From contig CBFFSA010000083.1 of the NCBI GenBank assembly GCA_965644495.1, positions 1 to 21,427 of the forward strand: a DNA stretch of 21,427 nt, given 5' to 3'. Below, one piece after another: positions 1 to 21,427 of this stretch (the stretch's first letter is position 1; each line of letters starts with the position of its first letter). The notes beneath the pieces were generated by a model. That model was not told where the DNA came from. It saw nothing but the letters and a program-made list of their open reading frames with translations, and searched no databases. The stretch comes from Perkinsela sp. CCAP 1560/9. Lineage: Eukaryota > Protista > Euglenozoa: Kinetoplastea. A program made the translations under genes and the position numbers.

Positions 1-483
1 ATCTGTTGTTCTCATCACGTGTCCCTCTCGAGGTGTTGCTTGCCTGGAGGCCTTCTCTCCAATGGCATTACCCATCTTCTTCAATACTATGCCTCCTCTG
101 ACTTCCTGATTATCTTTTCAGACGCCTTGCTGTTAAGCTTGTTGTCTAATACGCTTTCCTTTGCGAATAATCAGGACCTCCCACGTTCACTGTATTACTT
201 TAATATCATGCCATGCTCTCGGACCCCGGGAGTGCTACGCATGGCTTCCCATTTCGTCATGCGTGGTGTTGTCTTCTGGCTAAGGCAAACCATCGACCAC
301 TCCGACAAGCAAATTTTCGAGGCTCAATCACTTCGGCTTTCGCCTACGGCCTAATATCTCCCTATCTACGCTTAACCAACTGTGTTACCACAGCTCGCCC
401 AAGACTCAGTACGGTGTGTAGTGGGCTCTACTTCACCGGCGGTACTTTCAACCGCTAGTAATACAGCGCTTCGTGGCGCGCAC
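1..483 (-). mobile_element. Group II intron, 5' part (domains I-III and start of DIV); RT ORF and DV/DVI expected beyond the left edge
   Basis: Minus strand starts GTGCGC at 483 (GUGYG consensus). It contains typical bacterial IIB-like motifs: GCGAAAGC hairpin, TGAGCCTCGAAA, CCGGGGTCCGAGAGCATGGCATG, GAACGTGGGAG, and a DIII-like AAGTCAGAGGAGGCATAGTA...GAAG...GGTAATGCC...GGAGAGAAGG. Confidence 0.85.
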
Positions 484-677
484 CAAACATTAGCTTATCA
501 TCTGCTGCTTTAGTCGATCAGTTTAGTGGAATTATGAGTCAACAGAGTGGTATGGAGGAAGAACCTGAATCTTCACTAGTCATTCAAGGAGAGCAAAGTA
601 GCAAAGAGAAGTCGGACTCGCCGACGCAACCGCAACAACAACCTAAGCTAACGCGAAGATCCTCGTCAACGATTCCT
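484..677 (+). pseudogene. Fragment of a low-complexity S/E/Q/P-rich protein gene, bounded on the left by the antisense intron
   Basis: The frame of ORF 534-722 is open from the intron boundary (NISLSSAALVDQFSGIMSQQSGMEEEPESS...RRSSSTIP). No family recognised. Confidence 0.3.
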
Positions 678-851
678 CTGCGTGCTAAGTATGCTATTTG
701 TAAAACTGCAGATATGACCTAGGTTTGCACAAATCTATTTTATTTCGTACAGTGCTACGTATAGACCAGTTCAAACGAGCACGGGTTAACCACAATATCG
801 CTGGCTTACCAGCCACGCACACTCATGTGCTTTAGTTGCTAAAGTACGTAG
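678..851. mobile_element. Possible internally deleted IS remnant or MITE
   Basis: Imperfect terminal inverted repeats: CTGCGTGCT at 678 versus CTACGTACT (reverse complement ending at 851). No TSD and no ORF. Confidence 0.22.
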
Positions 852-1052
852 TTTTTAGAGGATTGGTAATTTTAAGGCAAGAAATTAGAAAAAATCGCCA
901 AAATTTAGCAAACTGAAATCAACGAATCGTCCCCCAAGCCCTCTGTATTACTAAGTGCTTTTTTTTTCAAGCTCAGATTTAGTTATAGAAACCACCATGG
1001 CCATCTAGGATTGGCCATCCTCGAATATGAAACTCCTTTTGTGCATAATACC

Positions 1053-1193
1053 CCAGCACCGAGTCCGACGTATTCATTGCAGGCTAGAGGCAATCAAGCG
1101 AGACTCAGTCAACCGATTCCGGTAATTTACGGCAGACACATTGTCTATCCTGATTTAGCCAGCACACCCTATGCACATTATGCCAACAATGAA
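1053..1193 (+). pseudogene. Phage tail-tip (TipJ/host-specificity J-like) gene, N-terminal fragment, 5'-truncated
   Basis: PAPSPTYSLQARGNQARLSQPIPVIYGRH is a typical J-like N-terminal motif. It joins in frame to the sequence after 2891 once the IS and one TSD are removed. Confidence 0.8.
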
Positions 1194-2886
1194 CCTAAAT
1201 TCCTCAGTTGAAAGAAGCTGTATAATGGCTTGAGCTTATAGAATAAGGGATTATGCAATGAAAATGTTACGGCCAAGTATTCACCCCGAGGGTGAAAGCT
1301 CTAGTCAAGCAGTTGAGGCCAAAGAATTACCATTAGAAGTAGATACCTATGCAGGCAAGCTGCATGTTGAATGGGATCCGGACGCATCGGTTACGCCGTT
1401 TGGTCAGTTACCATTTTTTATCGACTACTTGAAACTGGGTCACCGCTTTTTACCGTGGGTAGAAGATTGCCCTCTGGAATACACCAGTAATAACGCACCA
1501 GAAAAGGTAGATGTGCTAGGGTCTTTGTTTTTATCAGTGCTGTCAGGTCATACTCGCTATGCCCATATGAAAATGCTGGCAAATGACCGAGTGAATAGAG
1601 AGTTACTAGGCATGAACAAAATAGTCAGTGATGATTCTGCACGCCGTGCGTTAAAAAAGATTGAAGAAGCAGAAGGAATTGCGTGGATGCAACGTCACTT
1701 ATATTCAACCTGTGAACCATTGCTAACAATGCCGTGGATACTAGATGTCGATACAACAATCAAACCGATTTACGGTCATCAAGAAGGAGCAAAGATTGGT
1801 TATAACCCAAAGAAATCAGGGCGTCCATCGCATACCTATCATACGTACATGATAGCGAACCTTCGCTTGGTATTAGAAGTTTGTGTTAAAGCAGGTAACG
1901 AAAGTCAATCGAGTCATTCATTAGAAGGGCTGATTGAGTTGCTGGATAAAATACCATTGGGTAGTAAACCGTATTTAGTGCGAGGAGATTGTGATTGGGG
2001 AACAAATACAATCATGGAAGAATTAGAGTCGCGGGCCAAGGTTATTTGTTCAAGTTAAAGAAATCAAAATACGTGCAAGAGCTGATAATTAAGCATCATG
2101 GTGCCGGCGAATGGACTACCCTTGACTCAGATTGGGAAGCTAAAGAAGCGACATTGCAACTATCGAGTTGGAACAAAACTCGTCGAGTTGTTATTGTAAG
2201 ACAGAAGTTGTCTACGTCAAGAGATACGATTGCGTTAGAGCATGAAGAAAGTGGTCAGCAACAATTATCATTTGTTGAAAGACCAGAAGATTTAAAATTA
2301 TTTCGTTACTCAGTTTTGATAACCAATAGAGATGACGACTTGGTTAGTGTGGTTTGCCATTATCGTGATAGAGCGGATTGTGAAAACCAATTTGATGAAA
2401 TTAAAAACCAATGGGGCTGGGGAGGTTATACCACGTCTGATTTAAAGAGCAGTCAGTTGATGTCGAGGATGATTGCTCTGATTTATAATTGGTGGACGTT
2501 GTTTGTTAGATTAGCTAATCCAGATAATCATTTTGAAGCCATTACATCACGCCCACTGTTATTGAGTAGTGTGGGTAAGTTAACCCAGTCAGGGCGACAA
2601 AAGAAAATGCTATTGACCAGTCAACATGGTTCTGCTCATAAAATAAAACACTATTGTCAGCGGATTGTTAGCTTTTTTTACGTCACTTAAGCGTATTGCG
2701 CCGCAGTTGACCCCTCAGGAATGCTGGAAAGCCATTTTGATGAAAGCAACCGAGAAATTTAACTGGAAAAATCAGACTGCTGTTCCTCTGTTGCTACCCG
2801 CGCCAGGATAAATTGCAAAAGGAAGATATTTTTTCAAATTTTCCTGGAAAAATACTACGCCGGGAGAATCAACTGAGGAATTTAGG
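1194..2886 (+). mobile_element. IS1380-family insertion sequence
   Basis: Perfect 18-bp TIRs CCTAAATTCCTCAGTTGA (1194-1211 and 2869-2886). 5-bp TSD ATGAA (1189-1193 and 2887-2891). Encodes a DDE transposase. Confidence 0.92.
1258..2811 (+). pseudogene. IS1380-family DDE transposase with two frameshifts
   Basis: Motifs LDVDTT..YGHQEGA..GYNP, VRGDCDW and YRDRADCENQFDEIK. Frameshifts at ~2033 (ESR/GQGYLFK) and in the T7 run 2673-2679. The shifted frame continues SFFTSLKRIAPQLTPQECW...LLLPAPG to a stop at 2811. Confidence 0.85.
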
Positions 2887-2888
2887 AT

Positions 2889-4565
2889 GAACAATACCTC
2901 TATCAGTTACATTGCATTGGCCAAGGTGAATACGACATTGAAAGTATTCGTATTGAAGATACGCCCATTAGTGCCTTTGCTGAAATCACGTATGAAGTGG
3001 TGCCGCCTGGCAGTCAAGTTACCTCATTCTCACCGAATGTCATCACCGCACCGGAAATCGCGGGTCAAGAATTGTTATCAACCAGTGATGGGGGCGGTTA
3101 CGTTGGTGGCTTTGTGGTGAACCCAGCGGATACCACTGCAACAGAATTAAGCATCGACATTATCATGCCACGAGGATTGTACTATGCCAATGATGGTGGT
3201 GGTTTAGATGCACGCACCATAACGTGGATTGTTGAGGCAAGACAAATTAATGATGAAGGTAATCCATTACAGGATTGGCAGCGCTTAGGCAGTGAAACCA
3301 TGACAGCCGCTACCAATACGCCACAACGGTTAACCTATCATTATGTTGTTGCGCCAGGGCGTTATGAAGTCAGGCTACTCAGAACCAATAATAAAGATAC
3401 GTCAGCTCGTAGTGGCAATGAATTACGTTGGGCAGGATTGAAAGCTACGCTTAATCAACGTGTTGAGTTGGGTAACGTCACGTTGCTCGCCATTAAAATG
3501 CGTGCCACCGATAACTTATCACAGCGTGCCTCGCGATTAGTGAATTGCATTGTTACGCGCAAGTTACCAACGTGGAATAGAGAAACAGGTTGGAGTGCAC
3601 CCAAGGCAACACGCTCAATTGCTTGGAGCTTAGCGGATATTGCAAAAAATGAATACGGTGGTAACTTGCCTGATAGCCGTATTGATTTACAAGCGTTAGC
3701 GAACTTAGATGCGATATGGCAACAACGCAATGATTTTGTGGATGTAGTATTTGACCAACCGATTACCGTGTGGGAAGCGATGACACGTGTTGCTCGTTGT
3801 GGGCGAGCAGTATGTTTTATGCAAACGGGGATTGTGCGGTTTGTTAGAGACGAGCCAAGAGAAATTCCAGTTGCCCTATTCTCACCACGCAATATTGTTA
3901 AGCACAGTTTGAAGTTGCAATACTTACTTGCTAGTGATGATACCGCTGACAGTGTCATTGTTGAATATTTTTGTAACCAAACTTGGCGACCCGATGAAGT
4001 GGAAGTGAGTTTACCTAACAGCACCAGTGAACAACCGGCAAGAGTGAGATTATTAGGCTGTACCGATAAGAGTCAAGCCATACGTGAAGGCAAATACATG
4101 GCAGCCACCAATCACTATCGCAGGCGTCTTGTTACCTTTCAAACAGAGCTAGAGGGATTGATACCAACCTATGGTGATTTAATTGCGATTACGCACGACA
4201 TGCCAAGCTGGGGACAAGGGGCTGAAGTCGTTAGCGTTGATGGTAACACGTTAACTTTATCGGAGCCATTAACGTGGGATGAAGATAAACTGGATGAACA
4301 TGTTATTGGTCTTCGCAAGCAAGATGGTAGTGTCAGTGGCACGTATCAAGTGTTACCAAGTAATAATGCTAATCAAGTCATCATTCAAGGTGACTTTGAT
4401 TTCAAACCCTATACCGGTGAATCACAAGAGCGCACACATGTGGCCTTTGGTGTTGGCAATGCGTGGAGCACATTGGCTCGCGTTACCGCTGTGCGTCCTA
4501 GAGGAGATATCATTGAAATTAGTGCCGTTACCGAACATCCAGTCGTGCATAGTTCAGATGTGTAA
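2889..4565 (+). pseudogene. Phage tail-tip/host-specificity J-like protein, C-terminal part of the IS-interrupted gene
   Basis: Open frame EQYLYQLHCIGQGEYD... leading into the 522-aa ORF, with GRYEVRLLR, ATRSIAW, VRFVRD, FSPRNIV and QAIREG motifs characteristic of lambdoid J-like tail proteins. Confidence 0.85.
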
Positions 4566-4576
4566 CCTTCTTACGT

Positions 4577-4933
4577 TTAATCAACATGTTTACGTTCACC
4601 CAGAGATTGAGCAATCATAGAAATAACCAATGTATTTAAACTAACACCATCTAATTTGGCTTGTTGAGCTAAACGTCTGTGTAATGATTTAGGCGCACGC
4701 TGCACCCATCTGCCGCTGGCGGTCGTTAAATCATTTGGACTTGGAATATCACGATTGGCTTCTTTAGCGGCTTCAATCCAGCACTGTACGGCATCGATTC
4801 CATTTTCAATGGTTTCCTCAACTGTTTCACCATCAGACATACAGCCAGGCAAATCAGGAAATTCAATCAAATATCCACCACCTTCTTCCTTGGAGAGATG
4901 GCGTACAGTAAACGGGTAATCAAGCTCTTTCAT
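4577..4933 (-). CDS. hicB: HicB-family antitoxin with C-terminal ribbon-helix-helix
   Basis: EEGGGYLIEFPDLPGCMSDGETVEE motif plus SGRWVQRAPKSLHRRL...GVSLN. Confidence 0.93.
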   Translation of the reverse strand: MKELDYPFTVRHLSKEEGGGYLIEFPDLPGCMSDGETVEETIENGIDAVQCWIEAAKEANRDIPSPNDLTTASGRWVQRAPKSLHRRLAQQAKLDGVSLNTLVISMIAQSLGERKHVD

Positions 4934-5175
4934 GACAAGGTATCTCCAATAAATTAATCAAGGCAACAAACTTTTTAATATAAACAGGCTTTACTGGCCG
5001 ATGAGCAGGGACACATAGCAATTCTATCCAAGCAGGATGGTTAAATACCACGTGACTACCTTTGCCCTTTCTCACATTAATACCATAATGCTTAGCCACT
5101 GTTTCCAGTTGCTCAATCCTCCAATCCCGAGGATTTTCGTTCATTTTTTTTGATGATTTTGCTAGCATTTCTCAT
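4920..5175 (-). CDS. hicA: HicA-family mRNA interferase toxin (start 5168, or 5175 if the T8 run carries an extra base)
   Basis: NPRDW...GKGSHVVF.H...VPAHRPVKPVYIKK motif. Overlaps the hicB start. Confidence 0.88.
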
Positions 5176-5183
5176 AATCATGC

Positions 5184-5205
5184 ATGATACTGCATATAGT
5201 ATCAT
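5184..5205. promoter_or_regulatory. Palindromic operator upstream of hicA (putative HicB site)
   Basis: ATGATACT-gcatat-AGTATCAT, a perfect 8-bp inverted repeat just upstream of the hicA start. Confidence 0.6.
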
Positions 5206-5246
5206 TTGTCCAGCTTTTTTATATCAATGACAGAGGAAACTTGCCC

Positions 5247-5549
5247 ATGACGAGCAATAACACTGAGCCATCTAACGATGGCATCACACTATCACAGGCA
5301 CAGCTTGACGAATTAATTGAAAGAGCCTCAACACGTGGCGCACGCAAAGCGCTTATTGAAATGGGTTTGATGGATGATACGGTCAATGACCTGCGTACAC
5401 TGCGAGGGCTAGCAAAAACCCTCAAGACGATGCAACACACGTTTGTGCAAACGATGGTGCGTTGGTTAACCATCGGCATGTTGGTGCTATTTTTCGCGGG
5501 GATTTCTGGGAAACTCGATTCACTATTTCACTTAAACAATAGCAAATAA
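5247..5549 (+). CDS. DUF6127-like small phage membrane protein
   Basis: GAGGA RBS. LDELIERASTRGARKALIEMGL...DLRTLRGL motif with a C-terminal TM helix. Located downstream of the tail gene. Confidence 0.7.
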   Translation: MTSNNTEPSNDGITLSQAQLDELIERASTRGARKALIEMGLMDDTVNDLRTLRGLAKTLKTMQHTFVQTMVRWLTIGMLVLFFAGISGKLDSLFHLNNSK

Positions 5550-5600
5550 ATAAGGAATAATAGGATGGTAACCTTACTAGCTACATTGGTGGGTTTTATA

Positions 5601-6164
5601 GTCCTCTAAATGGTTAAAACCCCCGTCTTCCAGACGGGAAAATCTTCAGATCTTGTTGTATGATGTGGGCATGGGCAACTATACGCACAGTCACCATACG
5701 GTCTACCACCATCGATACCACATTGTTTGGGTAACGAAGTATCGTTATAAAGTTTTGCAAGGTGAGCTACGTCTTCGCGTTCGTGCTCTTGTAGCGCAAG
5801 TAGCTGAGGAAATGGGGGTTGAAATACTCAATGGAGTATTGTCAACAGAGCACATCCATCTTTTTGTTAGTATTCCACCGCATATTTCAGTAAGTGATTT
5901 TGTTAAAAAGGCAAAGGGTCGTTCATCGCGCAAAATCCAGCAAGAGTTTCCTAGTATTCGCAAACGCTATTGGGGCAGGCATTTTTGGGGTCGTGGATAT
6001 TTTAGTAGCACAAGTGGCAATGTAACAGATGATATCATTAATGCTTACATTGATAATCATGTTGATGCTCATAAAGTGGATTATGAATCGAATATGTCTT
6101 TAGACTGATACCGGCTTCAGCCTAGATCTCCAACCCACCAACTTCTAGTTGGTGGTGGTTGAGT
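5601..6164 (+). mobile_element. IS200/IS605-family element (tnpA only)
   Basis: Subterminal hairpins CCCGTCT-tcc-AGACGGG (5622-5638) and CCACCAACT-tct-AGTTGGTGG (6135-6155). Inserted after TTTTATA with no TSD. Ends inferred from restoring the host frame, so +/- a few nt. Confidence 0.88.
5671..6108 (+). CDS. tnpA: Y1 HUH transposase TnpA
   Basis: YHIVWVTKYR, HIH (HUH), KGRSSR, FWGRGYF, and catalytic Tyr in INAYIDNH. Confidence 0.93.
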   Translation: MGNYTHSHHTVYHHRYHIVWVTKYRYKVLQGELRLRVRALVAQVAEEMGVEILNGVLSTEHIHLFVSIPPHISVSDFVKKAKGRSSRKIQQEFPSIRKRYWGRHFWGRGYFSSTSGNVTDDIINAYIDNHVDAHKVDYESNMSLD

Positions 6165-6592
6165 TCTTCAGCTTTTCCTGACATGTTAAAACTTGTCAGA
6201 GACAGAGCCGACAGGAAACATGAGCTAGCAATCTTGGACAGGCAGCTTGAAGCACAACGTGAAGGCCATGTTCAGCGTTTAGAAGAAATTGAAGTGCAAG
6301 CTGACATGGCTGAAAGCAAAGCACTGTATCAACATGCCAGTCTTCCAAGTCATGTAAAGTGGGTCGAAGCCTTGCGTGCATCGGTAAGGCCGGTAATAAC
6401 GTATGCGTTCTTTGCTTTGTTTGTCTTTGTTAAAGTGATGGCATTAATTGCATTACTGCAACAAGGGTTCACAATAGTAGACAGTGTGTTAACGATTTGG
6501 GACGATGAAACGCAAGCGTTATTTGCGGCAGTAATGGCCTTCTGGTTCGGGCAGCGCAGCGTCACAAAATCCCGTCAATTGCATCAGTGATG

Positions 6593-6649
6593 ACTGCTTA
6601 AATAAATAGGCATAAATGACTGGCTATGTTTTCGATAGTAAGCGTTAAT
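6593..6649 (+). repeat. 57-bp direct repeat, copy 1 (probable promoter/regulatory module)
   Basis: 52/57 identical to 7144-7200 by manual alignment. Lies ~35 bp upstream of ORF 6684. Confidence 0.85.
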
Positions 6650-6683
6650 GGTGATAAGAAAACATTTACTGGAGATTAAAGCC

Positions 6684-6995
6684 ATGAACACAAACGCAAA
6701 CACTTGCCACGTTAACATCACTATGATTGAAAATCCTGATGATAATTGCACACAAAGCGAAGTAAACGCCCTTATTACAGTATTTCGAGATGCACTCACC
6801 TGCATTGTTCCTACTCGCGCTAGCGAAGTGTGGATAAACCTAGGTGATTCTACCACAACACCCAAAAACGTTAAGGACTTTCAAGTGCGTTTAGGACGCT
6901 GTGAGCGGTTTGCCGGAAAACCGGAAAAATGGGCAGGGGAATTTACTACCGCCAGCAAGAAAGTTACCTTGATTGCACGAATAGATAATCACTAA
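6684..6995 (+). CDS. Hypothetical protein (103 aa)
   Basis: GGAG RBS at 6671, ATG at 6684, followed by a terminator. No recognised family. Confidence 0.65.
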   Translation: MNTNANTCHVNITMIENPDDNCTQSEVNALITVFRDALTCIVPTRASEVWINLGDSTTTPKNVKDFQVRLGRCERFAGKPEKWAGEFTTASKKVTLIARIDNH

Positions 6996-7013
6996 TTGTC
7001 TCTCCTTGAGTTT

Positions 7014-7053
7014 GGCAACAGGCGCCTAATGTTGGCGTTTGTTGCCCTTTTTT
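7014..7053 (+). terminator. Rho-independent terminator
   Basis: GGCAACAGGCGCC / GGCGTTTGTTGCC stem followed by C-T6. Confidence 0.75.
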
Positions 7054-7143
7054 ATTGGGTTAAACCCAATCTCCCCTACTCCATCACCAAGCCCTGTAAA
7101 GCCGATTATTCCAGCCACATTAATGGTCTGCACATCAGCGATA

Positions 7144-7200
7144 ACTGCTCGAATAAATAGGCATAATTGACTGGCTATGTCTTCGATAGTGAGCGTTAAT
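7144..7200 (+). repeat. 57-bp direct repeat, copy 2
   Basis: Matches 6593-6649. Ends 8 nt before the retroelement junction. Confidence 0.85.
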
Positions 7201-7208
7201 TACAACGT

Positions 7209-8505
7209 AAGGGTTTCCTGTCTCCATAGGTCCGAGTACTCTTGTTCCGCCCAACGCTGCATGCATTTATACGCATGTGAGGCATATGCCATGTGGCCTT
7301 TGCGGCCCCCTCGATGCGGAGCTGGTAAAACGCATTTGGGAAGCATGGCCAGAAGCGTCCATGCCTGTAAGGAGTTTTCAGAGACCGCGTTCCGAATGGC
7401 GGAGGAGAGGATTTCTTCCCAGATCTGGCGGCAACGATAAGGCACGTCTTTGCACGTACTCAGCTGAAGAGAGCAGACAGAAGGAAGAGGTGGGAGCTCA
7501 AAGTTGGTGTTCTCTGGTGTTGGTGCGGTGCTCACTTCGTTGGGTGGAGTAAGAAGTTCGGGAGAAAGGAGCGCAACGGTTTTCGTTCCTTTGCAGCTGT
7601 GTCTGTGCGATGATCGTTTGTGGTTGTCGTAGTGGCGTCCGCATGAGGTGCATAGAAAACGGCCTTCTCTGTACCACCATTCATTAGGGATGCTGTTACC
7701 GTGCCGGCATGCGACATGGTTATAGAAGGCTTGCCAGGATCCGCCATGCGACGGACTGCGCCATGAACATCCCTGGGCCGGGCACTCTCGGAGCGCGGCA
7801 GACTTTCCTTGGGACAATGAGTTGGGCTCAGCGAGGCTAACGCCAGCGTTTTCAATATTCTGGGTTTCGTGTCTTCTTCCTGGTTGCTCTTGAGATGGAC
7901 CCGGAATAAGTTCATAAGGATGCAAGAGTGAAGGTGTCTCTGGGTCTACCCGGTATCGGATGAGCTTATTTCTCCGTGGAGTAGGGGTTTTCTTGGAGTG
8001 ACCTTTAATGTCCTCATTGCTACGTGCTTGGGCGGATAGAGCAGTTTTGAGTGGTGTACTTAGATGCTGTGTAGCATTCAAAGCCTCTTTCGTCTTCTTC
8101 GCTGGCGTTACTTGCCTGATAACAGCGGAGTGTTGCATCTCTTCATTTTCGACCTCCGTGTGACCTGTGTCCGGTGTTTCATTAATCCCACCTACGATCG
8201 CGTTCGTTCGGCGGATCCAATCTTCAGGAATATTCTGAGGGATGGGGGTCGTGTAAAGGTCTTCATGGTATGTGCTCGTCCCCGTGAATAAATGTTCGTT
8301 TCCTTTAAATTGGTCCCAAGACCCCGGTCGGTGAGTTCTGCCATTAATTTCTAAGCATTTGTCGTCCGTCTCCATGGCTTCGGCTTCGTGGTCCGGATTT
8401 CCGCTGTTGTCGATTATGGGAGGAAGTGTGTCTGCGGGGGGGGTGATACCAGACATAAAAATTAACCCGTACCTCGGAAAGAGATGAAATAGAAAAAATT
8501 CAACA
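7209..8505 (-). mobile_element. Retrotransposon copy 1: 5' portion only (zinc fingers), 3'-truncated at the bacterial junction
   Basis: Matches the other copies down to ...LWRQETL, then reads into bacterial sequence (stop at 7200-7202). Confidence 0.93.
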
Positions 8506-11500
8506 TTTTTTTTTTTTTTTTCTTACTTACTTTCCTACTTACTTTACTTCGCCCTTATCAACTTCGCCCGCTTCTCTCCCTTATCTCCACCCCCCCAAAG
8601 AAACCATCCGTGACTTCCCGACTTCACCCGCTTCTTTCCCTCACTTCCCCCCCCCGAGCATCCATCCGCGCCTTCCAAACTTTGCCCTCCTCTTTCCCTC
8701 ACTTCCCCCCAGAAATCAATCCGCGCGTGCTCCACCCCTTCTTCCAGCAGTGCGCGCTTCGGACCGGGTCTCTCGACCTCTCCACGGCCTGGCTTGGGAA
8801 CCCTTCCCTTGTTATGCGGGAGGGCGCAGGCGCGGGCATGTGCCGACAGCGGCACGGTCACGAAGTTGGGTTTTGATCGCCGGATTCGGATGAATGTTCC
8901 GAATCCATACCTGTCTCACATTGGGGTACCTTGCTCGTGAAAGCGAGGCGTGAGGATAGGCACTGTCGGCTCGATCGGCCTCGGGCCGCTCTGGAGGCTA
9001 TTCCTCCAGAGTTGCGATGGGGTCTTCGGAAGGTGAACGAGAAACCATCATGCGCGCTTGAAAGCGCATAAGGGTTATGTTTAGTTCAGCGAAGATTCGG
9101 CTCGTTGCCTCACCTTCCGAAAGTAGACCCCCCGAGGCGTGCGAACACCTCTCACCGACTTTGCGGAGCACGGCTGAAGCGCTGGGGCTCCAGGCGCCAT
9201 AACTTTCGACAACCATGGCCGTAAAGTCGCATCCTGCTTCTACGGCTTCTCGACGCTGCTTGCCCTTCTCCATTGAGGAATAATGTTCGGCAAATGACCC
9301 CGCGGCAACCCAGCTAGCGTTTCGGACTTTGTCCGTATATTTTAATTGCTGAGCATGGGTGACCGCGAAGTAAAGCACAATGGGATTTCCAAGAAAAAGG
9401 CTGGGCAAGTATATGTCGCCAGGTCTGGTGAGGGCCCCGCCTGGGCCCCTGTTCCCGAGACTCTTTTCTCGTTGAGGGGCGAGGCGGGCTCGACTGCACA
9501 CGTCCGCGAACTGGTCCGTAACAGCGTTGTGCCTGGTCACAATACCATGGCCATGTTTGCAAGACAGTGCATGGTCCCCTTTGCTGTCAAGGGGGAGCGA
9601 GCATTTCGGCATGGGGCACGTGCTATCTTCATGGTAGATGTCCACGCCTAACCACCAACGGGCCAAGGTTCGGAATTGTGTGGGGGTAAAGGCGTGCCCA
9701 AGGTCTTTCGAAGGAGTCACAAAGGCCCAGCTGCTCGCTCCCGTGCCACACTGGGAGATCCACCTTGCACGGGTTCGTGCGTCAGTTGTCTCATATTCCT
9801 GGGAAAAGGCATGGGCTGCAATAGCATAACTGATTACCCGCTGGCGCGGGATCTTCCCTTTCGGCCACTGTGGGGGTAACATGTCCTGGCATTCTTCAGA
9901 ACCGTAGAGGGGAGTCGAGAGTGGGTAGGCATCCGTGGGTGTGTTGGCCGTGCGGGAAGTCGTACGAAGAATATATCCCGGAGGCTCGTCCGGGGGGTGA
10001 GGATCATTCCCTGGCGGAGGGCGCCTTCTCTTCCGGTAGGAGTACGGCGCGCTCAGGGCCTTCTCGCATGGGGCGTTGGGAGTTGTGAGAACACGACCTC
10101 GGGGATCGAGGAGAGCAGTGCCGGCCTTCTGATTGATGTCGAGGATGGCCTCCGAGAAACCTTCAGCGTCTGTGGGATCCCAGGAATCTGTGGCAGAGGC
10201 AAAGGCGACGGATGCAACGTAAGCCGCGGAGGCGTGGAGGGCTGCGGATCTCAGACCTAATCCACCATGACGCTTCAGTCGCTGTGCTTGAGATTGTGCT
10301 GACCTGTCAAGAGGACAGATGATTGCCTCTATAGCGGTCATGAGAAAGTCGTCTAAACGGGAGCAAAGGTGAATCAGGGACTGTGGGGGCGTGCTTCTCA
10401 TGGCATACACCATTTGACAGAACCCCGCACATTGACGAATTAGGGCAAGCGCGACCTGGGGGTCCTGAATGTTGGTGATGGCATCGAGGGTATCCTCGGC
10501 TGGTTCTAGGGCGTGAGAAAGAAGATAAGCAGAGCAGTGGTCGGCGGATCCTACAGGACTCCCTAGTATGTCAAAGTTCCCCTGCGAATTGATCTTCTCG
10601 TCGGGTATGTCTGGGAAGTAATCAGCCTGGTGGGCCGAGCTGGGGGAAGTAATAATTTCGCATTTCGACGTATTGAGATGCAAGCCCCATTGAGGTCCTA
10701 CTCGGGCGATCGTGTCTAGGGCGTCTCTAACTTCCTGCGCCTGGCCAACGAGGACGCCATCGTCGAGATACCAGAGTTGGGCGGGAATATCAGTTTGAAG
10801 GTTAATGGCTTCTGAGAGCTCCAGGGCCACTAACGAGAAGAGCAATGGTCCTAGGGGATCGCCCTGTTGTACTCCTTCCTCGGAGGAGATGAATCGGGCC
10901 CCGTAGGTAAGAGAGCTGGGGTCGGAATAGCACCAATTGATCCAAGGGAAGAGTTCCGGGAAATATTCCTGTACTAGTGGAAGGAAGGCAGCCCTGCTTA
11001 CGTTATTGAAAGCGTTACGTAGGTCCACTTTGCACATGACGAAGTTCGGGTTTTCCATATTGGACGACATGGCCAGGCGACACATGTGAATGACTCTTTC
11101 GGCCCCGGCTGGCGCTGCCACTCCGTACTGTTTGCCTTCAAAGAGCTCGCTCGCTTTGGGTCGGATTGCGTTGCATACGGCTTTGCTCGCTAATCGCCGA
11201 AGGGTTTCCTGTCTCCATAGGTCCGAGTACTCTTGTTCCGCCCAACGCTGCATGCATTTATACGCATGTGAGGCATATGCCATGTGGCCTTTGCGGCCCC
11301 CTCGATGCGGAGCTGGTAAAACGCATTTGGGAAGCATGGCCAGAAGCGTCCATGCCTGTAAGGAGTTTTCAGAGACCGCGTTCCGAATGGCGGAGGAGAG
11401 GATTTCTTCCCAGATCTGGCGGCAACGATAAGGCACGTCTTTGCACGTACTCAGCTGAAGAGAGCAGACAGAAGGAAGAGGTGGGAGCTCAAAGTTGGTG

Positions 11501-12496
11501 TTCTCTGGTGTTGGTGCGGTGCTCACTTCGTTGGGTGGAGTAAGAAGTTCGGGAGAAAGGAGCGCAACGGTTTTCGTTCCTTTGCAGCTGTGTCTGTGCG
11601 ATGATCGTTTGTGGTTGTCGTAGTGGCGTCCGCATGAGGTGCATAGAAAACGGCCTTCTCTGTACCACCATTCATTAGGGATGCTGTTACCGTGCCGGCA
11701 TGCGACATGGTTATAGAAGGCTTGCCAGGATCCGCCATGCGACGGACTGCGCCATGAACATCCCTGGGCCGGGCACTCTCGGAGCGCGGCAGACTTTCCT
11801 TGGGACAATGAGTTGGGCTCAGCGAGGCTAACGCCAGCGTTTTCAATATTCTGGGTTTCGTGTCTTCTTCCTGGTTGCTCTTGAGATGGACCCGGAATAA
11901 GTTCATAAGGATGCAAGAGTGAAGGTGTCTCTGGGTCTACCCGGTATCGGATGAGCTTATTTCTCCGTGGAGTAGGGGTTTTCTTGGAGTGACCTTTAAT
12001 GTCCTCATTGCTACGTGCTTGGGCGGATAGAGCAGTTTTGAGTGGTGTACTTAGATGCTGTGTAGCATTCAAAGCCTCTTTCGTCTTCTTCGCTGGCGTT
12101 ACTTGCCTGATAACAGCGGAGTGTTGCATCTCTTCATTTTCGACCTCCGTGTGACCTGTGTCCGGTGTTTCATTAATCCCACCTACGATCGCGTTCGTTC
12201 GGCGGATCCAATCTTCAGGAATATTCTGAGGGATGGGGGTCGTGTAAAGGTCTTCATGGTATGTGCTCGTCCCCGTGAATAAATGTTCGTTTCCTTTAAA
12301 TTGGTCCCAAGACCCCGGTCGGTGAGTTCTGCCATTAATTTCTAAGCATTTGTCGTCCGTCTCCATGGCTTCGGCTTCGTGGTCCGGATTTCCGCTGTTG
12401 TCGATTATGGGAGGAAGTGTGTCTGCGGGGGGGGTGATACCAGACATAAAAATTAACCCGTACCTCGGAAAGAGATGAAATAGAAAAAATTCAACA
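8506..12496 (-). mobile_element. Retrotransposon copy 2 (CRE-clade-like, RLE-type non-LTR)
   Basis: 49-nt leader, single ORF, ~480-nt 3' UTR, GTAA repeats, A16 tail (8506-8521). Confidence 0.92.
8998..12447 (-). CDS. 1149-aa zinc finger-RT-RLE polyprotein (probably defective)
   Basis: C2H2 finger CPAQGC..HVACRH and CCHC finger CTSC..HRHSC. RT motifs VDLRNAFN, GVQQGDPLGPLLF, WYLDD (YLDD at 10759-10770), GLHLNTSK, ILGSPVG and GGLGL. Knuckle CPMPKC..HALSC, then RHN, RPGDI and VVESYGAW. Confidence 0.92.
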   Translation of the reverse strand: MSGITPPADTLPPIIDNSGNPDHEAEAMETDDKCLEINGRTHRPGSWDQFKGNEHLFTGTSTYHEDLYTTPIPQNIPEDWIRRTNAIVGGINETPDTGHTEVENEEMQHSAVIRQVTPAKKTKEALNATQHLSTPLKTALSAQARSNEDIKGHSKKTPTPRRNKLIRYRVDPETPSLLHPYELIPGPSQEQPGRRHETQNIENAGVSLAEPNSLSQGKSAALRECPAQGCSWRSPSHGGSWQAFYNHVACRHGNSIPNEWWYREGRFLCTSCGRHYDNHKRSSHRHSCKGTKTVALLSPELLTPPNEVSTAPTPENTNFELPPLPSVCSLQLSTCKDVPYRCRQIWEEILSSAIRNAVSENSLQAWTLLAMLPKCVLPAPHRGGRKGHMAYASHAYKCMQRWAEQEYSDLWRQETLRRLASKAVCNAIRPKASELFEGKQYGVAAPAGAERVIHMCRLAMSSNMENPNFVMCKVDLRNAFNNVSRAAFLPLVQEYFPELFPWINWCYSDPSSLTYGARFISSEEGVQQGDPLGPLLFSLVALELSEAINLQTDIPAQLWYLDDGVLVGQAQEVRDALDTIARVGPQWGLHLNTSKCEIITSPSSAHQADYFPDIPDEKINSQGNFDILGSPVGSADHCSAYLLSHALEPAEDTLDAITNIQDPQVALALIRQCAGFCQMVYAMRSTPPQSLIHLCSRLDDFLMTAIEAIICPLDRSAQSQAQRLKRHGGLGLRSAALHASAAYVASVAFASATDSWDPTDAEGFSEAILDINQKAGTALLDPRGRVLTTPNAPCEKALSAPYSYRKRRRPPPGNDPHPPDEPPGYILRTTSRTANTPTDAYPLSTPLYGSEECQDMLPPQWPKGKIPRQRVISYAIAAHAFSQEYETTDARTRARWISQCGTGASSWAFVTPSKDLGHAFTPTQFRTLARWWLGVDIYHEDSTCPMPKCSLPLDSKGDHALSCKHGHGIVTRHNAVTDQFADVCSRARLAPQREKSLGNRGPGGALTRPGDIYLPSLFLGNPIVLYFAVTHAQQLKYTDKVRNASWVAAGSFAEHYSSMEKGKQRREAVEAGCDFTAMVVESYGAWSPSASAVLRKVGERCSHASGGLLSEGEATSRIFAELNITLMRFQARMMVSRSPSEDPIATLEE

Positions 12497-15400
12497 TTTT
12501 TTTTTTTTTTTTTCTTACTTACTTTCCTACTTACTTTACTTCGCCCTTATCAACTTCGCCCGCTTCTCTCCCTTATCTCCACCCCCCCAAAGAAACCATC
12601 CGTGACTTCCCGACTTCACCCGCTTCTTTCCCTCACTTCCCCCCCCCCGAGCATCCATCCGCGCCTTCCAAACTTTGCCCTCCTCTTTCCCTCACTTCCC
12701 CCCAGAAATCAATCCGCGCGTGCTCCACCCCTTCTTCCAGCAGTGCGCGCTTCGGACCGGGTCTCTCGACCTCTCCACGGCCTGGCTTGGGAACCCTTCC
12801 CTTGTTATGCGGGAGGGCGCAGGCGCGGGCATGTGCCGACAGCGGCACGGTCACGAAGTTGGGTTTTGATCGCCGGATTCGGATGAATGTTCCGAATCCA
12901 TACCTGTCTCACATTGGGGTACCTTGCTCGTGAAAGCGAGGCGTGAGGATAGGCACTGTCGGCTCGATCGGCCTCGGGCCGCTCTGGAGGCTATTCCTCC
13001 AGAGTTGCGATGGGGTCTTCGGAAGGTGAACGAGAAACCATCATGCGCGCTTGAAAGCGCATAAGGGTTATGTTTAGTTCAGCGAAGATTCGGCTCGTTG
13101 CCTCACCTTCCGAAAGTAGACCCCCCGAGGCGTGCGAACACCTCTCACCGACTTTGCGGAGCACGGCTGAAGCGCTGGGGCTCCAGGCGCCATAACTTTC
13201 GACAACCATGGCCGTAAAGTCGCATCCTGCTTCTACGGCTTCTCGACGCTGCTTGCCCTTCTCCATTGAGGAATAATGTTCGGCAAATGACCCCGCGGCA
13301 ACCCAGCTAGCGTTTCGGACTTTGTCCGTATATTTTAATTGCTGAGCATGGGTGACCGCGAAGTAAAGCACAATGGGATTTCCAAGAAAAAGGCTGGGCA
13401 AGTATATGTCGCCAGGTCTGGTGAGGGCCCCGCCTGGGCCCCTGTTCCCGAGACTCTTTTCTCGTTGAGGGGCGAGGCGGGCTCGACTGCACACGTCCGC
13501 GAACTGGTCCGTAACAGCGTTGTGCCTGGTCACAATACCATGGCCATGTTTGCAAGACAGTGCATGGTCCCCTTTGCTGTCAAGGGGGAGCGAGCATTTC
13601 GGCATGGGGCACGTGCTATCTTCATGGTAGATGTCCACGCCTAACCACCAACGGGCCAAGGTTCGGAATTGTGTGGGGGTAAAGGCGTGCCCAAGGTCTT
13701 TCGAAGGAGTCACAAAGGCCCAGCTGCTCGCTCCCGTGCCACACTGGGAGATCCACCTTGCACGGGTTCGTGCGTCAGTTGTCTCATATTCCTGGGAAAA
13801 GGCATGGGCTGCAATAGCATAACTGATTACCCGCTGGCGCGGGATCTTCCCTTTCGGCCACTGTGGGGGTAACATGTCCTGGCATTCTTCAGAACCGTAG
13901 AGGGGAGTCGAGAGTGGGTAGGCATCCGTGGGTGTGTTGGCCGTGCGGGAAGTCGTACGAAGAATATATCCCGGAGGCTCGTCCGGGGGGTGAGGATCAT
14001 TCCCTGGCGGAGGGCGCCTTCTCTTCCGGTAGGAGTACGGCGCGCTCAGGGCCTTCTCGCATGGGGCGTTGGGAGTTGTGAGAACACGACCTCGGGGATC
14101 GAGGAGAGCAGTGCCGGCCTTCTGATTGATGTCGAGGATGGCCTCCGAGAAACCTTCAGCGTCTGTGGGATCCCAGGAATCTGTGGCAGAGGCAAAGGCG
14201 ACGGATGCAACGTAAGCCGTGGAGGCGTGGAGGGCTGCGGATCTCAGACCTAATCCACCATGACGCTTCAGTCGCTGTGCTTGAGATTGTGCTGACCTGT
14301 CAAGAGGACAGATGATTGCCTCTATAGCGGTCATGAGAAAGTCGTCTAAACGGGAGCAAAGGTGAATCAGGGACTGTGGGGGCGTGCTTCTCATGGCATA
14401 CACCATTTGACAGAACCCCGCACATTGACGAATTAGGGCAAGCGCGACCTGGGGGTCCTGAATGTTGGTGATGGCATCGAGGGTATCCTCGGCTGGTTCT
14501 AGGGCGTGAGAAAGAAGATAAGCAGAGCAGTGGTCGGCGGATCCTACAGGACTCCCTAGTATGTCAAAGTTCCCCTGCGAATTGATCTTCTCGTCGGGTA
14601 TGTCTGGGAAGTAATCAGCCTGGTGGGCCGAGCTGGGGGAAGTAATAATTTCGCATTTCGACGTATTGAGATGCAAGCCCCATTGAGGTCCTACTCGGGC
14701 GATCGTGTCTAGGGCGTCTCTAACTTCCTGCGCCTGGCCAACGAGGACGCCATCGTCGAGATACCAGAGTTGGGCGGGAATATCAGTTTGAAGGTTAATG
14801 GCTTCTGAGAGCTCCAGGGCCACTAACGAGAAGAGCAATGGTCCTAGGGGATCGCCCTGTTGTACTCCTTCCTCGGAGGAGATGAATCGGGCCCCGTAGG
14901 TAAGAGAGCTGGGGTCGGAATAGCACCAATTGATCCAAGGGAAGAGTTCCGGGAAATATTCCTGTACTAGTGGAAGGAAGGCAGCCCTGCTTACGTTATT
15001 GAAAGCGTTACGTAGGTCCACTTTGCACATGACGAAGTTCGGGTTTTCCATATTGGACGACATGGCCAGGCGACACATGTGAATGACTCTTTCGGCCCCG
15101 GCTGGCGCTGCCACTCCGTACTGTTTGCCTTCAAAGAGCTCGCTCGCTTTGGGTCGGATTGCGTTGCATACGGCTTTGCTCGCTAATCGCCGAAGGGTTT
15201 CCTGTCTCCATAGGTCCGAGTACTCTTGTTCCGCCCAACGCTGCATGCATTTATACGCATGTGAGGCATATGCCATGTGGCCTTTGCGGCCCCCTCGATG
15301 CGGAGCTGGTAAAACGCATTTGGGAAGCATGGCCAGAAGCGTCCATGCCTGTAAGGAGTTTTCAGAGACCGCGTTCCGAATGGCGGAGGAGAGGATTTCT

Positions 15401-16489
15401 TCCCAGATCTGGCGGCAACGATAAGGCACGTCTTTGCACGTACTCAGCTGAAGAGAGCAGACAGAAGGAAGAGGTGGGAGCTCAAAGTTGGTGTTCTCTG
15501 GTGTTGGTGCGGTGCTCACTTCGTTGGGTGGAGTAAGAAGTTCGGGAGAAAGGAGCGCAACGGTTTTCGTTCCTTTGCAGCTGTGTCTGTGCGATGATCG
15601 TTTGTGGTTGTCGTAGTGGCGTCCGCATGAGGTGCATAGAAAACGGCCTTCTCTGTACCACCATTCATTAGGGATGCTGTTACCGTGCCGGCATGCGACA
15701 TGGTTATAGAAGGCTTGCCAGGATCCGCCATGCGACGGACTGCGCCATGAACATCCCTGGGCCGGGCACTCTCGGAGCGCGGCAGACTTTCCTTGGGACA
15801 ATGAGTTGGGCTCAGCGAGGCTAACGCCAGCGTTTTCAATATTCTGGGTTTCGTGTCTTCTTCCTGGTTGCTCTTGAGATGGACCCGGAATAAGTTCATA
15901 AGGATGCAAGAGTGAAGGTGTCTCTGGGTCTACCCGGTATCGGATGAGCTTATTTCTCCGTGGAGTAGGGGTTTTCTTGGAGTGACCTTTAATGTCCTCA
16001 TTGCTACGTGCTTGGGAGGATAGAGCAGTTTTGAGTGGTGTACTTAGATGCTGTGTAGCATTCAAAGCCTCTTTCGTCTTCTTCGCTGGCGTTACTTGCC
16101 TGATAACAGCGGAGTGTTGCATCTCTTCATTTTCGACCTCCGTGTGACCTGTGTCCGGTGTTTCATTAATCCCACCTACGATCGCGTTCGTTCGGCGGAT
16201 CCAATCTTCAGGAATATTCTGAGGGATGGGGGTCGTGTAAAGGTCTTCATGGTATGTGCTCGTCCCCGTGATTAAATGTTCGTTTCCTTTAAATTGGTCC
16301 CAAGACCCCGGTCGGTGAGTTCTGCCATTAATTTCTAAGCATTTGTCGTCCGTCTCCATGGCTTCGGCTTCGTGGTCCGGATTTCCGCTGTTGTCGATTA
16401 TGGGAGGAAGTGTGTCTGCGGGGGGGATGATACCAGACATAAAAATTAACCCGTACCTCGGAAAGAGATGAAATAGAAAAAATACAACA
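12497..16489 (-). mobile_element. Retrotransposon copy 3
   Basis: A17 tail at 12497-12513. Near-identical to copy 2. Confidence 0.92.
12991..16440 (-). CDS. 1149-aa zinc finger-RT-RLE polyprotein
   Basis: As copy 2, with four substitutions (T>I, F>I, A>S, A>T). Confidence 0.92.
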   Translation of the reverse strand: MSGIIPPADTLPPIIDNSGNPDHEAEAMETDDKCLEINGRTHRPGSWDQFKGNEHLITGTSTYHEDLYTTPIPQNIPEDWIRRTNAIVGGINETPDTGHTEVENEEMQHSAVIRQVTPAKKTKEALNATQHLSTPLKTALSSQARSNEDIKGHSKKTPTPRRNKLIRYRVDPETPSLLHPYELIPGPSQEQPGRRHETQNIENAGVSLAEPNSLSQGKSAALRECPAQGCSWRSPSHGGSWQAFYNHVACRHGNSIPNEWWYREGRFLCTSCGRHYDNHKRSSHRHSCKGTKTVALLSPELLTPPNEVSTAPTPENTNFELPPLPSVCSLQLSTCKDVPYRCRQIWEEILSSAIRNAVSENSLQAWTLLAMLPKCVLPAPHRGGRKGHMAYASHAYKCMQRWAEQEYSDLWRQETLRRLASKAVCNAIRPKASELFEGKQYGVAAPAGAERVIHMCRLAMSSNMENPNFVMCKVDLRNAFNNVSRAAFLPLVQEYFPELFPWINWCYSDPSSLTYGARFISSEEGVQQGDPLGPLLFSLVALELSEAINLQTDIPAQLWYLDDGVLVGQAQEVRDALDTIARVGPQWGLHLNTSKCEIITSPSSAHQADYFPDIPDEKINSQGNFDILGSPVGSADHCSAYLLSHALEPAEDTLDAITNIQDPQVALALIRQCAGFCQMVYAMRSTPPQSLIHLCSRLDDFLMTAIEAIICPLDRSAQSQAQRLKRHGGLGLRSAALHASTAYVASVAFASATDSWDPTDAEGFSEAILDINQKAGTALLDPRGRVLTTPNAPCEKALSAPYSYRKRRRPPPGNDPHPPDEPPGYILRTTSRTANTPTDAYPLSTPLYGSEECQDMLPPQWPKGKIPRQRVISYAIAAHAFSQEYETTDARTRARWISQCGTGASSWAFVTPSKDLGHAFTPTQFRTLARWWLGVDIYHEDSTCPMPKCSLPLDSKGDHALSCKHGHGIVTRHNAVTDQFADVCSRARLAPQREKSLGNRGPGGALTRPGDIYLPSLFLGNPIVLYFAVTHAQQLKYTDKVRNASWVAAGSFAEHYSSMEKGKQRREAVEAGCDFTAMVVESYGAWSPSASAVLRKVGERCSHASGGLLSEGEATSRIFAELNITLMRFQARMMVSRSPSEDPIATLEE

Positions 16490-19400
16490 TTTTTTTTTTT
16501 TTTTTTTCTTACTTACTTTCTTTACTTACTTACTTCTTACTTACTTACTTTACTTCGCCCTTATCAACTTCGCCCGCTTCTCTCCCTTATCTCCACCCCC
16601 CCAAAGAAACCATCCGTGACTTCCCGACTTCACCCGCTTCTTTCCCTCACTTCCCCCCCCCGAGCATCCATCCGCGCCTTCCAAACTTTGCCCTCCTCTT
16701 TCCCTCACTTCCCCCCAGAAATCAATCCGCGCGTGCTCCACCCCTTCTTCCAGCAGTGCGCGCTTCGGACCGGGTCTCTCGACCTCTCCACGGCCTGGCT
16801 TGGGAACCCTTCCCTTGTTATGCGGGAGGGCTCAGGCGCGGGCATGTGCCGACAGCGGCACGGTCACGAAGTTGGGTTTTGATCGCCGGACTCGGATGAA
16901 TGTTCCGAATCCATACCTGTCTCACATTGGGGTACCTTGCTCGTGAAAGCGAGGCGTGAGGATAGGCACTGTCGGCTCGATCGGCCTCGGGCCGCTCTGG
17001 AGGCTATTCCTCCAGAGTTGCGATGGGGTCTTCGGAAGGTGAACGAGAAACCATCATGCGCGCTTGAAAGCGCATAAGGGTTATGTTTAGTTCAGCGAAG
17101 ATTCGGCTTGTTGCCTCAACTTCCGAAAGTAGACCCCCCGAGGCGTGCGAACACCTCTCACCGACTTTGCGGAGCACGGCTGAAGCGCTGGGGCTCCAGG
17201 CGCCATAACTTTCGACAACCATGGCCGTAAAGTCGCATCCTGCTTCTACGGCTTCTCGACGCTGCTTGCCCTTCTCCATTGAGGAATAATGTTCGGCAAA
17301 TGACCCCGCGGCAACCCAGCTAGCGTTTCGGACTTTGTCCGTATATTTTAATTGCTGAGCATGGGTGACCGCGAAGTAAAGCACAATGGGATTTCCAAGA
17401 AAAAGGCTGGGCAAGTATATGTCGCCAGGTCTGGTGAGGGCCCCGCCTGGGCCCCTGTTCCCGAGACTCTTTTCTCGTTGAGGGGCGAGGCGGGCTCGAC
17501 TGCACACGTCCGCGAACTGGTCCGTAACAGCGTTGTGCCTGGTCACAATACCATGGCCATGTTTGCAAGACAGTGCATGGTCCCCTTTGCTGTCAAGGGG
17601 GAGCGAGCATTTCGGCATGGGGCACGTGCTATCTTCATGGTAGATGTCCACGCCTAACCACCAACGGGCCAAGGTTCGGAATTGTGTGGGGGTAAAGGCG
17701 TGCCCAAGGTCTTTCGAAGGAGTCACAAAGGCCCAGCTGCTCGCTCCCGTGCCACACTGGGAGATCCACCTTGCACGGGTTCGTGCGTCAGTTGTCTCAT
17801 ATTCCTGGGAAAAGGCATGGGCTGCAATAGCATAACTGATTACCCGCTGGCGCGGGATCTTCCCTTTCGGCCACTGTGGGGGTAACATGTCCTGGCATTC
17901 TTCAGAACCGTAGAGGGGAGTCGAGAGTGGGTAGGCATCCGTGGGTGTGTTGGCCGTGCGGGAAGTCGTACGAAGAATATATCCCGGAGGCTCGTCCGGG
18001 GGGTGAGGATCATTCCCTGGCGGAGGGCGCCTTCTCTTCCGGTAGGAGTACGGCGCGCTCAGGGCCTTCTCGCATGGGGCGTTGGGAGTTGTGAGAACAC
18101 GACCTCGGGGATCGAGGAGAGCAGTGCCGGCCTTCTGATTGATGTCGAGGATGGCCTCCGAGAAACCTTCAGCGTCTGTGGGATCCCAGGAATCTGTGGC
18201 AGAGGCAAAGGCGACGGATGCAACGTAAGCCGCGGAGGCGTGGAGGGCTGCGGATCTCAGACCTAATCCACCATGACGCTTCAGTCGCTGTGCTTGAGAT
18301 TGTGCTGACCTGTCAAGAGGACAGATGATTGCCTCTATAGCGGTCATGAGAAAGTCGTCTAAACGGGAGCAAAGGTGAATCAGGGACTGTGGGGGCGTGC
18401 TTCTCATGGCATACACCATTTGACAGAACCCCGCACATTGACGAATTAGGGCAAGCGCGACCTGGGGGTCCTGAATGTTGGTGATGGCATCGAGGGTATC
18501 CTCGGCTGGTTCTAGGGCGTGAGAAAGAAGATAAGCAGAGCAGTGGTCGGCGGATCCTACAGGACTCCCTAGTATGTCAAAGTTCCCCTGCGAATTGATC
18601 TTCTCGTCGGGTATGTCTGGGAAGTAATCAGCCTGGTGGGCCGAGCTGGGGGAAGTAATAATTTCGCATTTCGACGTATTGAGATGCAAGCCCCATTGAG
18701 GTCCTACTCGGGCGATCGTGTCTAGGGCGTCTCTAACTTCCTGCGCCTGGCCAACGAGGACGCCATCGTCGAGATACCAGAGTTGGGCGGGAATATCAGT
18801 TTGAAGGTTAATGGCTTCTGAGAGCTCCAGGGCCACTAACGAGAAGAGCAATGGTCCTAGGGGATCGCCCTGTTGTACTCCTTCCTCGGAGGAGATGAAT
18901 CGGGCCCCGTAGGTAAGAGAGCTGGGGTCGGAATAGCACCAATTGATCCAAGGGAAGAGTTCCGGGAAATATTCCTGTACTAGTGGAAGGAAGGCAGCCC
19001 TGCTTACGTTATTGAAAGCGTTACGTAGGTCCACTTTGCACATGACGAAGTTCGGGTTTTCCATATTGGACGACATGGCCAGGCGACACATGTGAATGAC
19101 TCTTTCGGCCCCGGCTGGCGCTGCCACTCCGTACTGTTTGCCTTCAAAGAGCTCGCTCGCTTTGGGTCGGATTGCGTTGCATACGGCTTTGCTCGCTAAT
19201 CGCCGAAGGGTTTCCTGTCTCCATAGGTCCGAGTACTCTTGTTCCGCCCAACGCTGCATGCATTTATACGCATGTGAGGCATATGCCATGTGGCCTTTGC
19301 GGCCCCCTCGATGCGGAGCTGGTAAAACGCATTTGGGAAGCATGGCCAGAAGCGTCCATGCCTGTAAGGAGTTTTCAGAGACCGCGTTCCGAATGGCGGA

Positions 19401-20502: not shown

Positions 20503-21427
20503 TTTTTTTTTTTTTTTTCTTACTTACTTTCCTACTTACTTTACTTCGCCCTTATCAACTTCGCCCGCTTCTCTCCCTTATCTCCACCCCCCCAAAGAAA
20601 CCATCCGTGACTTCCCGACTTCACCCGCTTCTTTCCCTCACTTCCCCCCCCCGAGCATCCATCCGCGCCTTCCAAACTTTGCCCTCCTCTTTCCCTCACT
20701 TCCCCCCAGAAATCAATCCGCGCGTGCTCCACCCCTTCTTCCAGCAGTGCGCGCTTCGGACCGGGTCTCTCGACCTCTCCACGGCCTGGCTTGGGAACCC
20801 TTCCCTTGTTATGCGGGAGGGCGCAGGCGCGGGCATGTGCCGACAGCGGCACGGTCACGAAGTTGGGTTTTGATCGCCGGATTCGGATGAATGTTCCGAA
20901 TCCATACCTGTCTCACATTGGGGTACCTTGCTCGTGAAAGCGAGGCGTGAGGATAGGCACTGTCGGCTCGATCGGCCTCGGGCCGCTCTGGAGGCTATTC
21001 CTCCAGAGTTGCGATGGGGTCTTCGGAAGGTGAACGAGAAACCATCATGCGCGCTTGAAAGCGCATAAGGGTTATGTTTAGTTCAGCGAAGATTCGGCTC
21101 GTTGCCTCACCTTCCGAAAGTAGACCCCCCGAGGCGTGCGAACACCTCTCACCGACTTTGCGGAGCACGGCTGAAGCGCTGGGGCTCCAGGCGCCATAAC
21201 TTTCGACAACCATGGCCGTAAAGTCGCATCCTGCTTCTACGGCTTCTCGACGCTGCTTGCCCTTCTCCATTGAGGAATAATGTTCGGCAAATGACCCCGC
21301 GGCAACCCAGCTAGCGTTTCGGACTTTGTCCGTATATTTTAATTGCTGAGCATGGGTGACCGCGAAGTAAAGCACAATGGGATTTCCAAGAAAAAGGCTG
21401 GGCAAGTATATGTCGCCAGGTCTGGTG
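20503..21427 (-). mobile_element. Retrotransposon copy 5, 3' end (continues beyond the window)
   Basis: A16 tail at 20503-20518, 3' UTR, and RLE-coding C-terminus with stop at 20995. Confidence 0.92.

Follow-up and report, generated by a model that had tools for sequence, protein, structure and literature searches.

The window (the whole stretch of DNA analysed, 21,427 nt) contains a tandem repeat with a unit of about 4 kb, which self-alignment traces from 7209 to the window end, and the GC content changes from 43% left of this boundary to 54% right of it. The question raised by this locus is whether the boundary is the native end of an amplified retrotransposon array or was produced in another way. 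The features of the window are as follows.

1–7210, plus strand: bacterial chromosome segment with a prophage-like tail region, IS elements and a hicB-type antitoxin gene (G001 alignment, Pfam, 43% GC)
7133–7200, plus strand: 68-bp bacterial repeat ahead of small ORFs (next ORF in G001 begins 27 nt past 7209)
7209–7210, no strand: join, AA common to the bacterial and element sides (2-nt microhomology), likely artefactual (alignments, no bridging contig)
7209–21427, minus strand: head-to-tail array of an internally deleted non-LTR retrotransposon, 54% GC, continuing off the window end
7209–7217, minus strand: remnant of 7–9 nt from the reverse transcriptase (RT) side of the deletion junction, codons E-T-L
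7218–7221, minus strand: 4-nt filler where the full-length element has 508 nt (in-frame change, net 168 codons)
11209–11212, 15202–15205 and 19215–19218, minus strand: recurrences of the filler in later copies
7222–8505, minus strand: innermost element copy, 5′ part; ORF start at 8456
8506–8521, minus strand: poly(A) tail adjoining the 5′ end of the next copy
8998–12447, minus strand: single 1149-aa ORF; RT without N-terminal motifs, endonuclease motif D to Y at residue 1026
12991–16440 and 17004–20453, minus strand: further whole ORF copies
16017–17119, no strand: likely exchange tract, carrying nine of the 11 substitutions that separate copies plus a 20-nt expansion of the tail

The bacterial flank

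The nearest match to the flank left of the boundary is a complete bacterial genome (G001; one contig of about 2.4 Mb, 97% complete). Positions 1–7210 align with G001:C1:1345820–1353028 at 99.96% identity, with no substitutions and three one-base homopolymer indels. The genes left of 7209 were assigned with Pfam to a split DDE transposase, a phage tail protein, a HicB-like antitoxin, DUF6127 and an IS200 transposase. An extra T at 2673 in the window shortens a transposase frame by 42 residues relative to the longer frame in G001.

The window was also compared with the Logan contigs of four public runs (X1–X4, four of the six runs listed, all from one study); these contigs drop rare forms, and the window's own library may not be among the four. 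A second extra T in the window, at 5144, is absent from the contigs of all four runs.

Past 7210, G001 continues into a 103-aa ORF that begins 27 nt further on, and this bacterial continuation is likewise found behind 7210 in the contigs of all four runs. Fourteen G001 matches were obtained to 301 nt around the site, six of which reach the far end of the bacterial continuation at 93–100% identity; these six are the locus itself and five paralogs (93–96%). A search of the complete G001 genome with the retrotransposon unit gave no match anywhere.

The conserved 68-bp element occurs twice in the window (6582–6649 and 7133–7200; L001:8632–10209), ahead of a series of small ORFs, each about 103 aa long. 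Each of these ORFs is followed by a hairpin-like stretch and many paralogs are present in G001; the one small ORF examined had no Pfam match. The prophage-like tail module (window 1045–6650; L002–L015) has at least 12 further copies in G001 at 71–90% identity. In the window module a frameshifted DDE transposase element (about 1195–2886) interrupts a tail gene, and an IS200 element lies at 5595–6165.

The retrotransposon array

The repeated element is a eukaryotic non-LTR retrotransposon with a predicted RT and a predicted restriction-like endonuclease. The RT domain is of the non-LTR type (RVT_1 match; all five PDB matches are R2-type or RT-like proteins), and a C-terminal series of CCHC plus RHD/N, E, R/KPD and D/E motifs is present in the full-length protein P0129, with motif spacers (4, 9, 3, 8, 19, 13 and 14) that fall slightly beyond the published ranges. 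The named relatives among the best 120 of 598 protein matches are eukaryotic (Ephydatia muelleri, Symbiodinium natans), most matches being unnamed. The full-length element protein had matches in none of 21 genomes related to G001, in a search run without a positive control. A scan of 7000–12700 with Rfam for an RNA-gene target returned one chance-level match (E = 0.16).

In each array unit a lone minus-strand ORF of 1149 aa encodes an RT domain, and a poly(A) tail adjoins the 5′ end of the next copy. The periods are 3991, 3993 and 4013 nt, and the poly(A) tracts at the four unit joints (8506, 12497, 16490 and 20503) are 16, 17, 18 and 16 nt long. The window end falls within a unit, 21427 being equivalent to unit position 9430. 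The three whole ORFs (10.3 kb) contain no frameshift and 36 homopolymer runs of at least five, versus 29 in the bacterial part. A 58-bp repeat (2.6 copies) lies in the 3′ untranslated part of the element (window 8560–8710 and equivalents).

The innermost copy keeps its 5′ part (7209–8505) and is without the 3′ half of the RT, the endonuclease, the 3′ UTR and the poly(A). An earlier reading of the sequence alone (the sequence-only reading) had placed the start of unit identity at 7209 and noted the missing 3′ end and poly(A) of this copy, and both points are confirmed by the self-alignment and the ORF layout. The same reading held that the boundary is not an end of the kind that target-primed reverse transcription (TPRT) leaves; in agreement with this, the element 3′ end and poly(A) are absent at the join, which lies inside the RT region.

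Eleven substitutions were found among the copies, nine of which fall within 16017–17119 (1.1 kb) together with the 20-nt tail expansion (clustering P about 6e-8). The expansion is of a CTTA type, and three alleles of the tract also occur in the run contigs. A second public contig, of 23,767 nt, contributes four more proteins with the same deletion junction, and in the window and this contig taken together every one of the four combinations of the protein variants at residues 5 and 221 is present. Since the residue-221 variant is present in both contigs, it is not a read error. The allele combinations point to exchange among the array copies, and unequal exchange or conversion inside the array may have spread and mixed the deleted subfamily. 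A fresh rolling-circle concatemer (in vivo or MDA) would have copies identical but for scattered errors, which is contradicted here by the clustered variants and the four-way allele combinations; with its polymorphic, recombined copies, the array is not a single fresh concatemer.

The internal deletion

The window ORF (1149 aa) shows a 168-aa gap at residue 413 relative to full-length P0129 (1317 aa); P0129 and P0002 are near-identical to the window ORF and carry 168 more residues after position 413. The deleted residues cover the N-terminal RT motifs up to RPIAAG. The run contigs place the breakpoints between 7217 and 7218 and between 7221 and 7222, the former resting on contig ends and arithmetic rather than on the letters of a full-length allele. 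By arithmetic from the contigs, 508 nt are replaced by 4 nt, a net loss of 168 codons: for X1 on 7090–7390, the deleted-allele contig is 64 nt (30+4+30) and the full-length contig 568 nt (30+508+30). In X1 and X3, contigs end at 11208 and begin at 11213, which correspond to 7217 and 7222 in the first copy. X1 and X3 contain both alleles, X2 the deleted junction and X4 the full-length form only. The array and its internal deletion are demonstrably real, forming an in-frame deleted subfamily alongside full-length copies. The deleted allele is found in the contigs of X1, X2 and X3 and not in those of X4, contigs that drop rare forms, and samples may differ in whether they have the deleted subfamily.

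In the endonuclease motif series, the last aspartate is a tyrosine in all four window copies and in the three covering pieces of the 23,767-nt contig. The residue is D in three proteins without the deletion and in 49 of 50 pattern-matched homologues among the best 120. Because this aspartate is replaced by tyrosine, the deleted copies are likely to be non-autonomous. The 1149-aa frame has stayed intact in these copies despite the missing RT motifs and the D-to-Y change (window 9370–9372 and equivalents), and such a dead protein, if translated, could affect the RNA that encodes it or the full-length copies.

Visual inspection led to the rejection of a splicing-like origin for the deletion, there being no GT/GC–AG fit with the 4-nt filler. 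The filler plus one flanking base per side (6 nt, 7217–7222) is found again, in inverted orientation, some 20 nt into the deleted segment, which is a weak hint of templated end joining. A 26-nt pattern spanning the deletion junction was found at no locus in metagenome_contigs and genome_contigs, collections from which the organism may be absent.

The join is ambiguous over the AA at 7209–7210, so its distance to the deletion breakpoint is 7–9 nt. The sequence-only reading had proposed such closeness, which could have been overturned by a true breakpoint far from 7209–7217 once a full-length allele was aligned; with P0129 and the run contigs aligned, the proposal stands. A random junction would fall in the 22-nt zone around the deletion with a frequency of 0.55% per 3991-nt unit, or 1.1–2.2% if two to four landmarks are allowed.

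Evidence at the join

Over the region 7090–7390, 68 contig records aligned, 32 of which were listed individually; the depth table covers all 68. Three of the four runs show the deletion junction continuing into the element. The depth over 7211–7221 is 9, 232, 110 and 0, in each run matching that of its one deleted-allele contig, and all such contigs continue left into the element. No contig bridging bacterium and element was found in any of the four runs (contigs only, one study, rare forms dropped). The junction of a bacterium-to-eukaryote transfer would be looked for in independent reads or samples, and here it is present in none of the four runs, whose contigs drop rare forms. The bacterial-to-element contig depth ratios are 2.6, 66, 26 and 45; such depth does not represent copy number and is a hint at most.

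There is no homology at the join beyond the AA (flanking identity 12/40 and 13/40) and no template-switch tract. Neither the join nor the unit site nor the bacterial site forms a hairpin above shuffles (z = 0.74, 0.67 and −0.30, respectively). The four element proteins of the window, including the join-specific truncated one, had no exact match in the protein collection. The window shares the hallmarks of chimeric contigs in that its two sides match separate genomes, both of which continue elsewhere, and that composition and gene taxonomy both shift, with phage and IS genes on the left versus a eukaryote-type RT on the right. Left and right are both ordinary pieces of separate genomes, continuing each in its own way in other data.

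Origin of the join

The odd array end is likely to be a piece of bacterial chromosome joined artefactually to the tandem retrotransposon array of a eukaryote. An artefact of one kind or another, whether a library chimera or an assembler join, is very likely, and its probable form is one chimeric long-read molecule kept as its own contig. In a library with abundant bacterial DNA, two sheared fragments would have been joined end to end as a chimera of ligation or amplification, the one from the array would by chance have ended 7–9 nt from the deletion, and the chimeric molecule would have survived assembly as a separate contig. The three homopolymer indels in 7.2 kb agree with the HiFi read figure of 5 errors per 10 kb given in the accessible text of 10.1101/2025.04.22.649783, a source that also describes cross-domain chimeric contigs from long-read assemblers. 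In the accessible parts of other sources, chimeric reads are put at 0.02–3.17% in ONT libraries, with a warning for the validation of transfers (PMC8495745), and MDA chimeras are documented (PMC11660948). A chimeric molecule leaves the proximity of 7–9 nt unexplained, as a coincidence (0.5–2%). In addition, ORF frameshifts might be expected in a single raw read, the probability of their absence being about 0.09 by arithmetic, and the frameshift-free array part would require correction by other reads.

The distance of 7–9 nt is accounted for without chance if the join was made or placed by the assembler or polisher: where full-length and deleted copies stop aligning, a graph node would arise, onto which the bacterial path was glued. 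This is the main point for an explanation that we nevertheless consider doubtful. The allele branch is real, with both alleles seen and with contig ends on either side of it in X1 and X3; the bacterial side of the join also lies in a multi-copy repeat, about 10% of 1–7210 being within 10 nt of a paralog alignment end; and cross-domain chimeras produced by long-read assemblers are reported in the text available of 10.1101/2025.04.22.649783. However, two shared nucleotides are too few for an overlap or k-mer join, and the join lies to the left of the branch, leaving the deleted-allele junction whole. The uncorrected-looking homopolymer indels in the bacterial part also suit a single read better than a consensus. 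An assembly-graph branch between deleted and full-length alleles had been offered as the alternative in the sequence-only reading. The alleles do diverge here (both are present in X1 and X3), and that suggestion came close to the artefact preferred here, but the branch is no more than a possible cause of the join.

The closeness to the deletion could also arise from a fragile site, if the join were a real and very recent capture in which the DNA of an associated bacterium was end-joined into an array break at a site broken before, by the deletion. The two-base microhomology is compatible with end joining, and both sequences occur in the same runs. On the other hand, none of the four runs has a bridging contig, the 7.2 kb of bacterial sequence carry homopolymer indels and not one substitution, and hairpins above shuffles are lacking at all three sites, so that such a capture appears improbable. 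The more specific proposal that a prophage-like fragment was captured in vivo at a recurrently breaking site of the RT gene, which had earlier yielded the in-frame, nuclease-dead subfamily, is very improbable. Should the join be real after all, it would show a lateral transfer just as it begins and would point to a fragile site of the array.

The boundary would be native if a fragment of two adjacent elements had circularised at the deletion junction, been amplified by rolling circle and been inserted from breakpoint to breakpoint, as the sequence-only reading had suggested with its circularly permuted unit. Its position 7–9 nt from the breakpoint and the sharing of one deletion by all copies seen are in keeping with such a circle, and a rolling-circle origin is proposed for Bari1 arrays with partial end copies in the accessible part of 10.1101/158386. 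This model is contradicted by the flank, which is bacterial and not host DNA and which continues in G001, at five paralogous loci and in all four runs, none of which has a contig bridging the join. The copies, moreover, are polymorphic and recombined, with nine of 11 substitutions in 1.1 kb (P about 6e-8) and residues 5 and 221 in four combinations. The spread of an internal deletion by unequal exchange gives the same array interior, as for the R1 array (10.1101/158386, accessible part). A circle with its native end at this boundary is therefore extremely improbable, the least probable of the explanations considered. An old circle is possible as the origin of the deleted subfamily, but the boundary is no evidence for it, because spread of the deletion by unequal exchange leads to the same interior.

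Comparison with known systems

Bacterium-to-eukaryote lateral transfers, for example Wolbachia inserts, place bacterial DNA beside eukaryotic repeats. The window join differs from Wolbachia-type transfers in that its junction is without independent support and its bacterial part shows no substitution from the bacterial genome. Known chimeric long reads and cross-domain contigs resemble the window in their abrupt shift of GC content and taxonomy (10.1101/2025.04.22.649783; PMC8495745; accessible parts), and in chimeric contigs, as here, all other assembled sequence diverges at the join and the error pattern is like that of a single read. Unlike those cases, the window comes without read-level proof, and proximity to an allele branch point is not covered in the accessible parts of these sources.

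Two Drosophila arrays are comparable with that of the window as far as the accessible text of 10.1101/158386 goes. In the R1 tandem array, internally deleted variants rose in copy number, and the Bari1 array has partial end copies. The ends of the R1 and Bari1 arrays lie in host DNA, whereas the only visible array end in the window adjoins a bacterial chromosome.

The element itself resembles the REL-endonuclease elements of the CRE/SLACS/MoTeR/CNL1 group, for which a REL motif consensus is given in PMC12857005 (accessible part). Both have a single ORF with RT and C-terminal CCHC, RHN, E, R-P-D and D motifs; the spacers of the window element (C-X4-C-X9-H-X3-C-X8-RHN, RPGD) are slightly different, and a CRE-like label would denote a motif resemblance. 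Unlike the group as described in that text, the window copies are missing 168 aa and the last motif aspartate, and no target gene was found for them. The contig calls for caution: neither bacterium-to-eukaryote transfer nor the rolling-circle amplification of a LINE fragment should be concluded from it. The tandem subfamily, which varies between samples and combines an in-frame deletion in the RT with a changed nuclease motif, is real and of a known kind. Elements of the CRE/SLACS/MoTeR/CNL1 group form tandem arrays as the window element does, and CNL1 is present as 16 to 39 copies in subtelomeric arrays (PMC12810828, accessible part).
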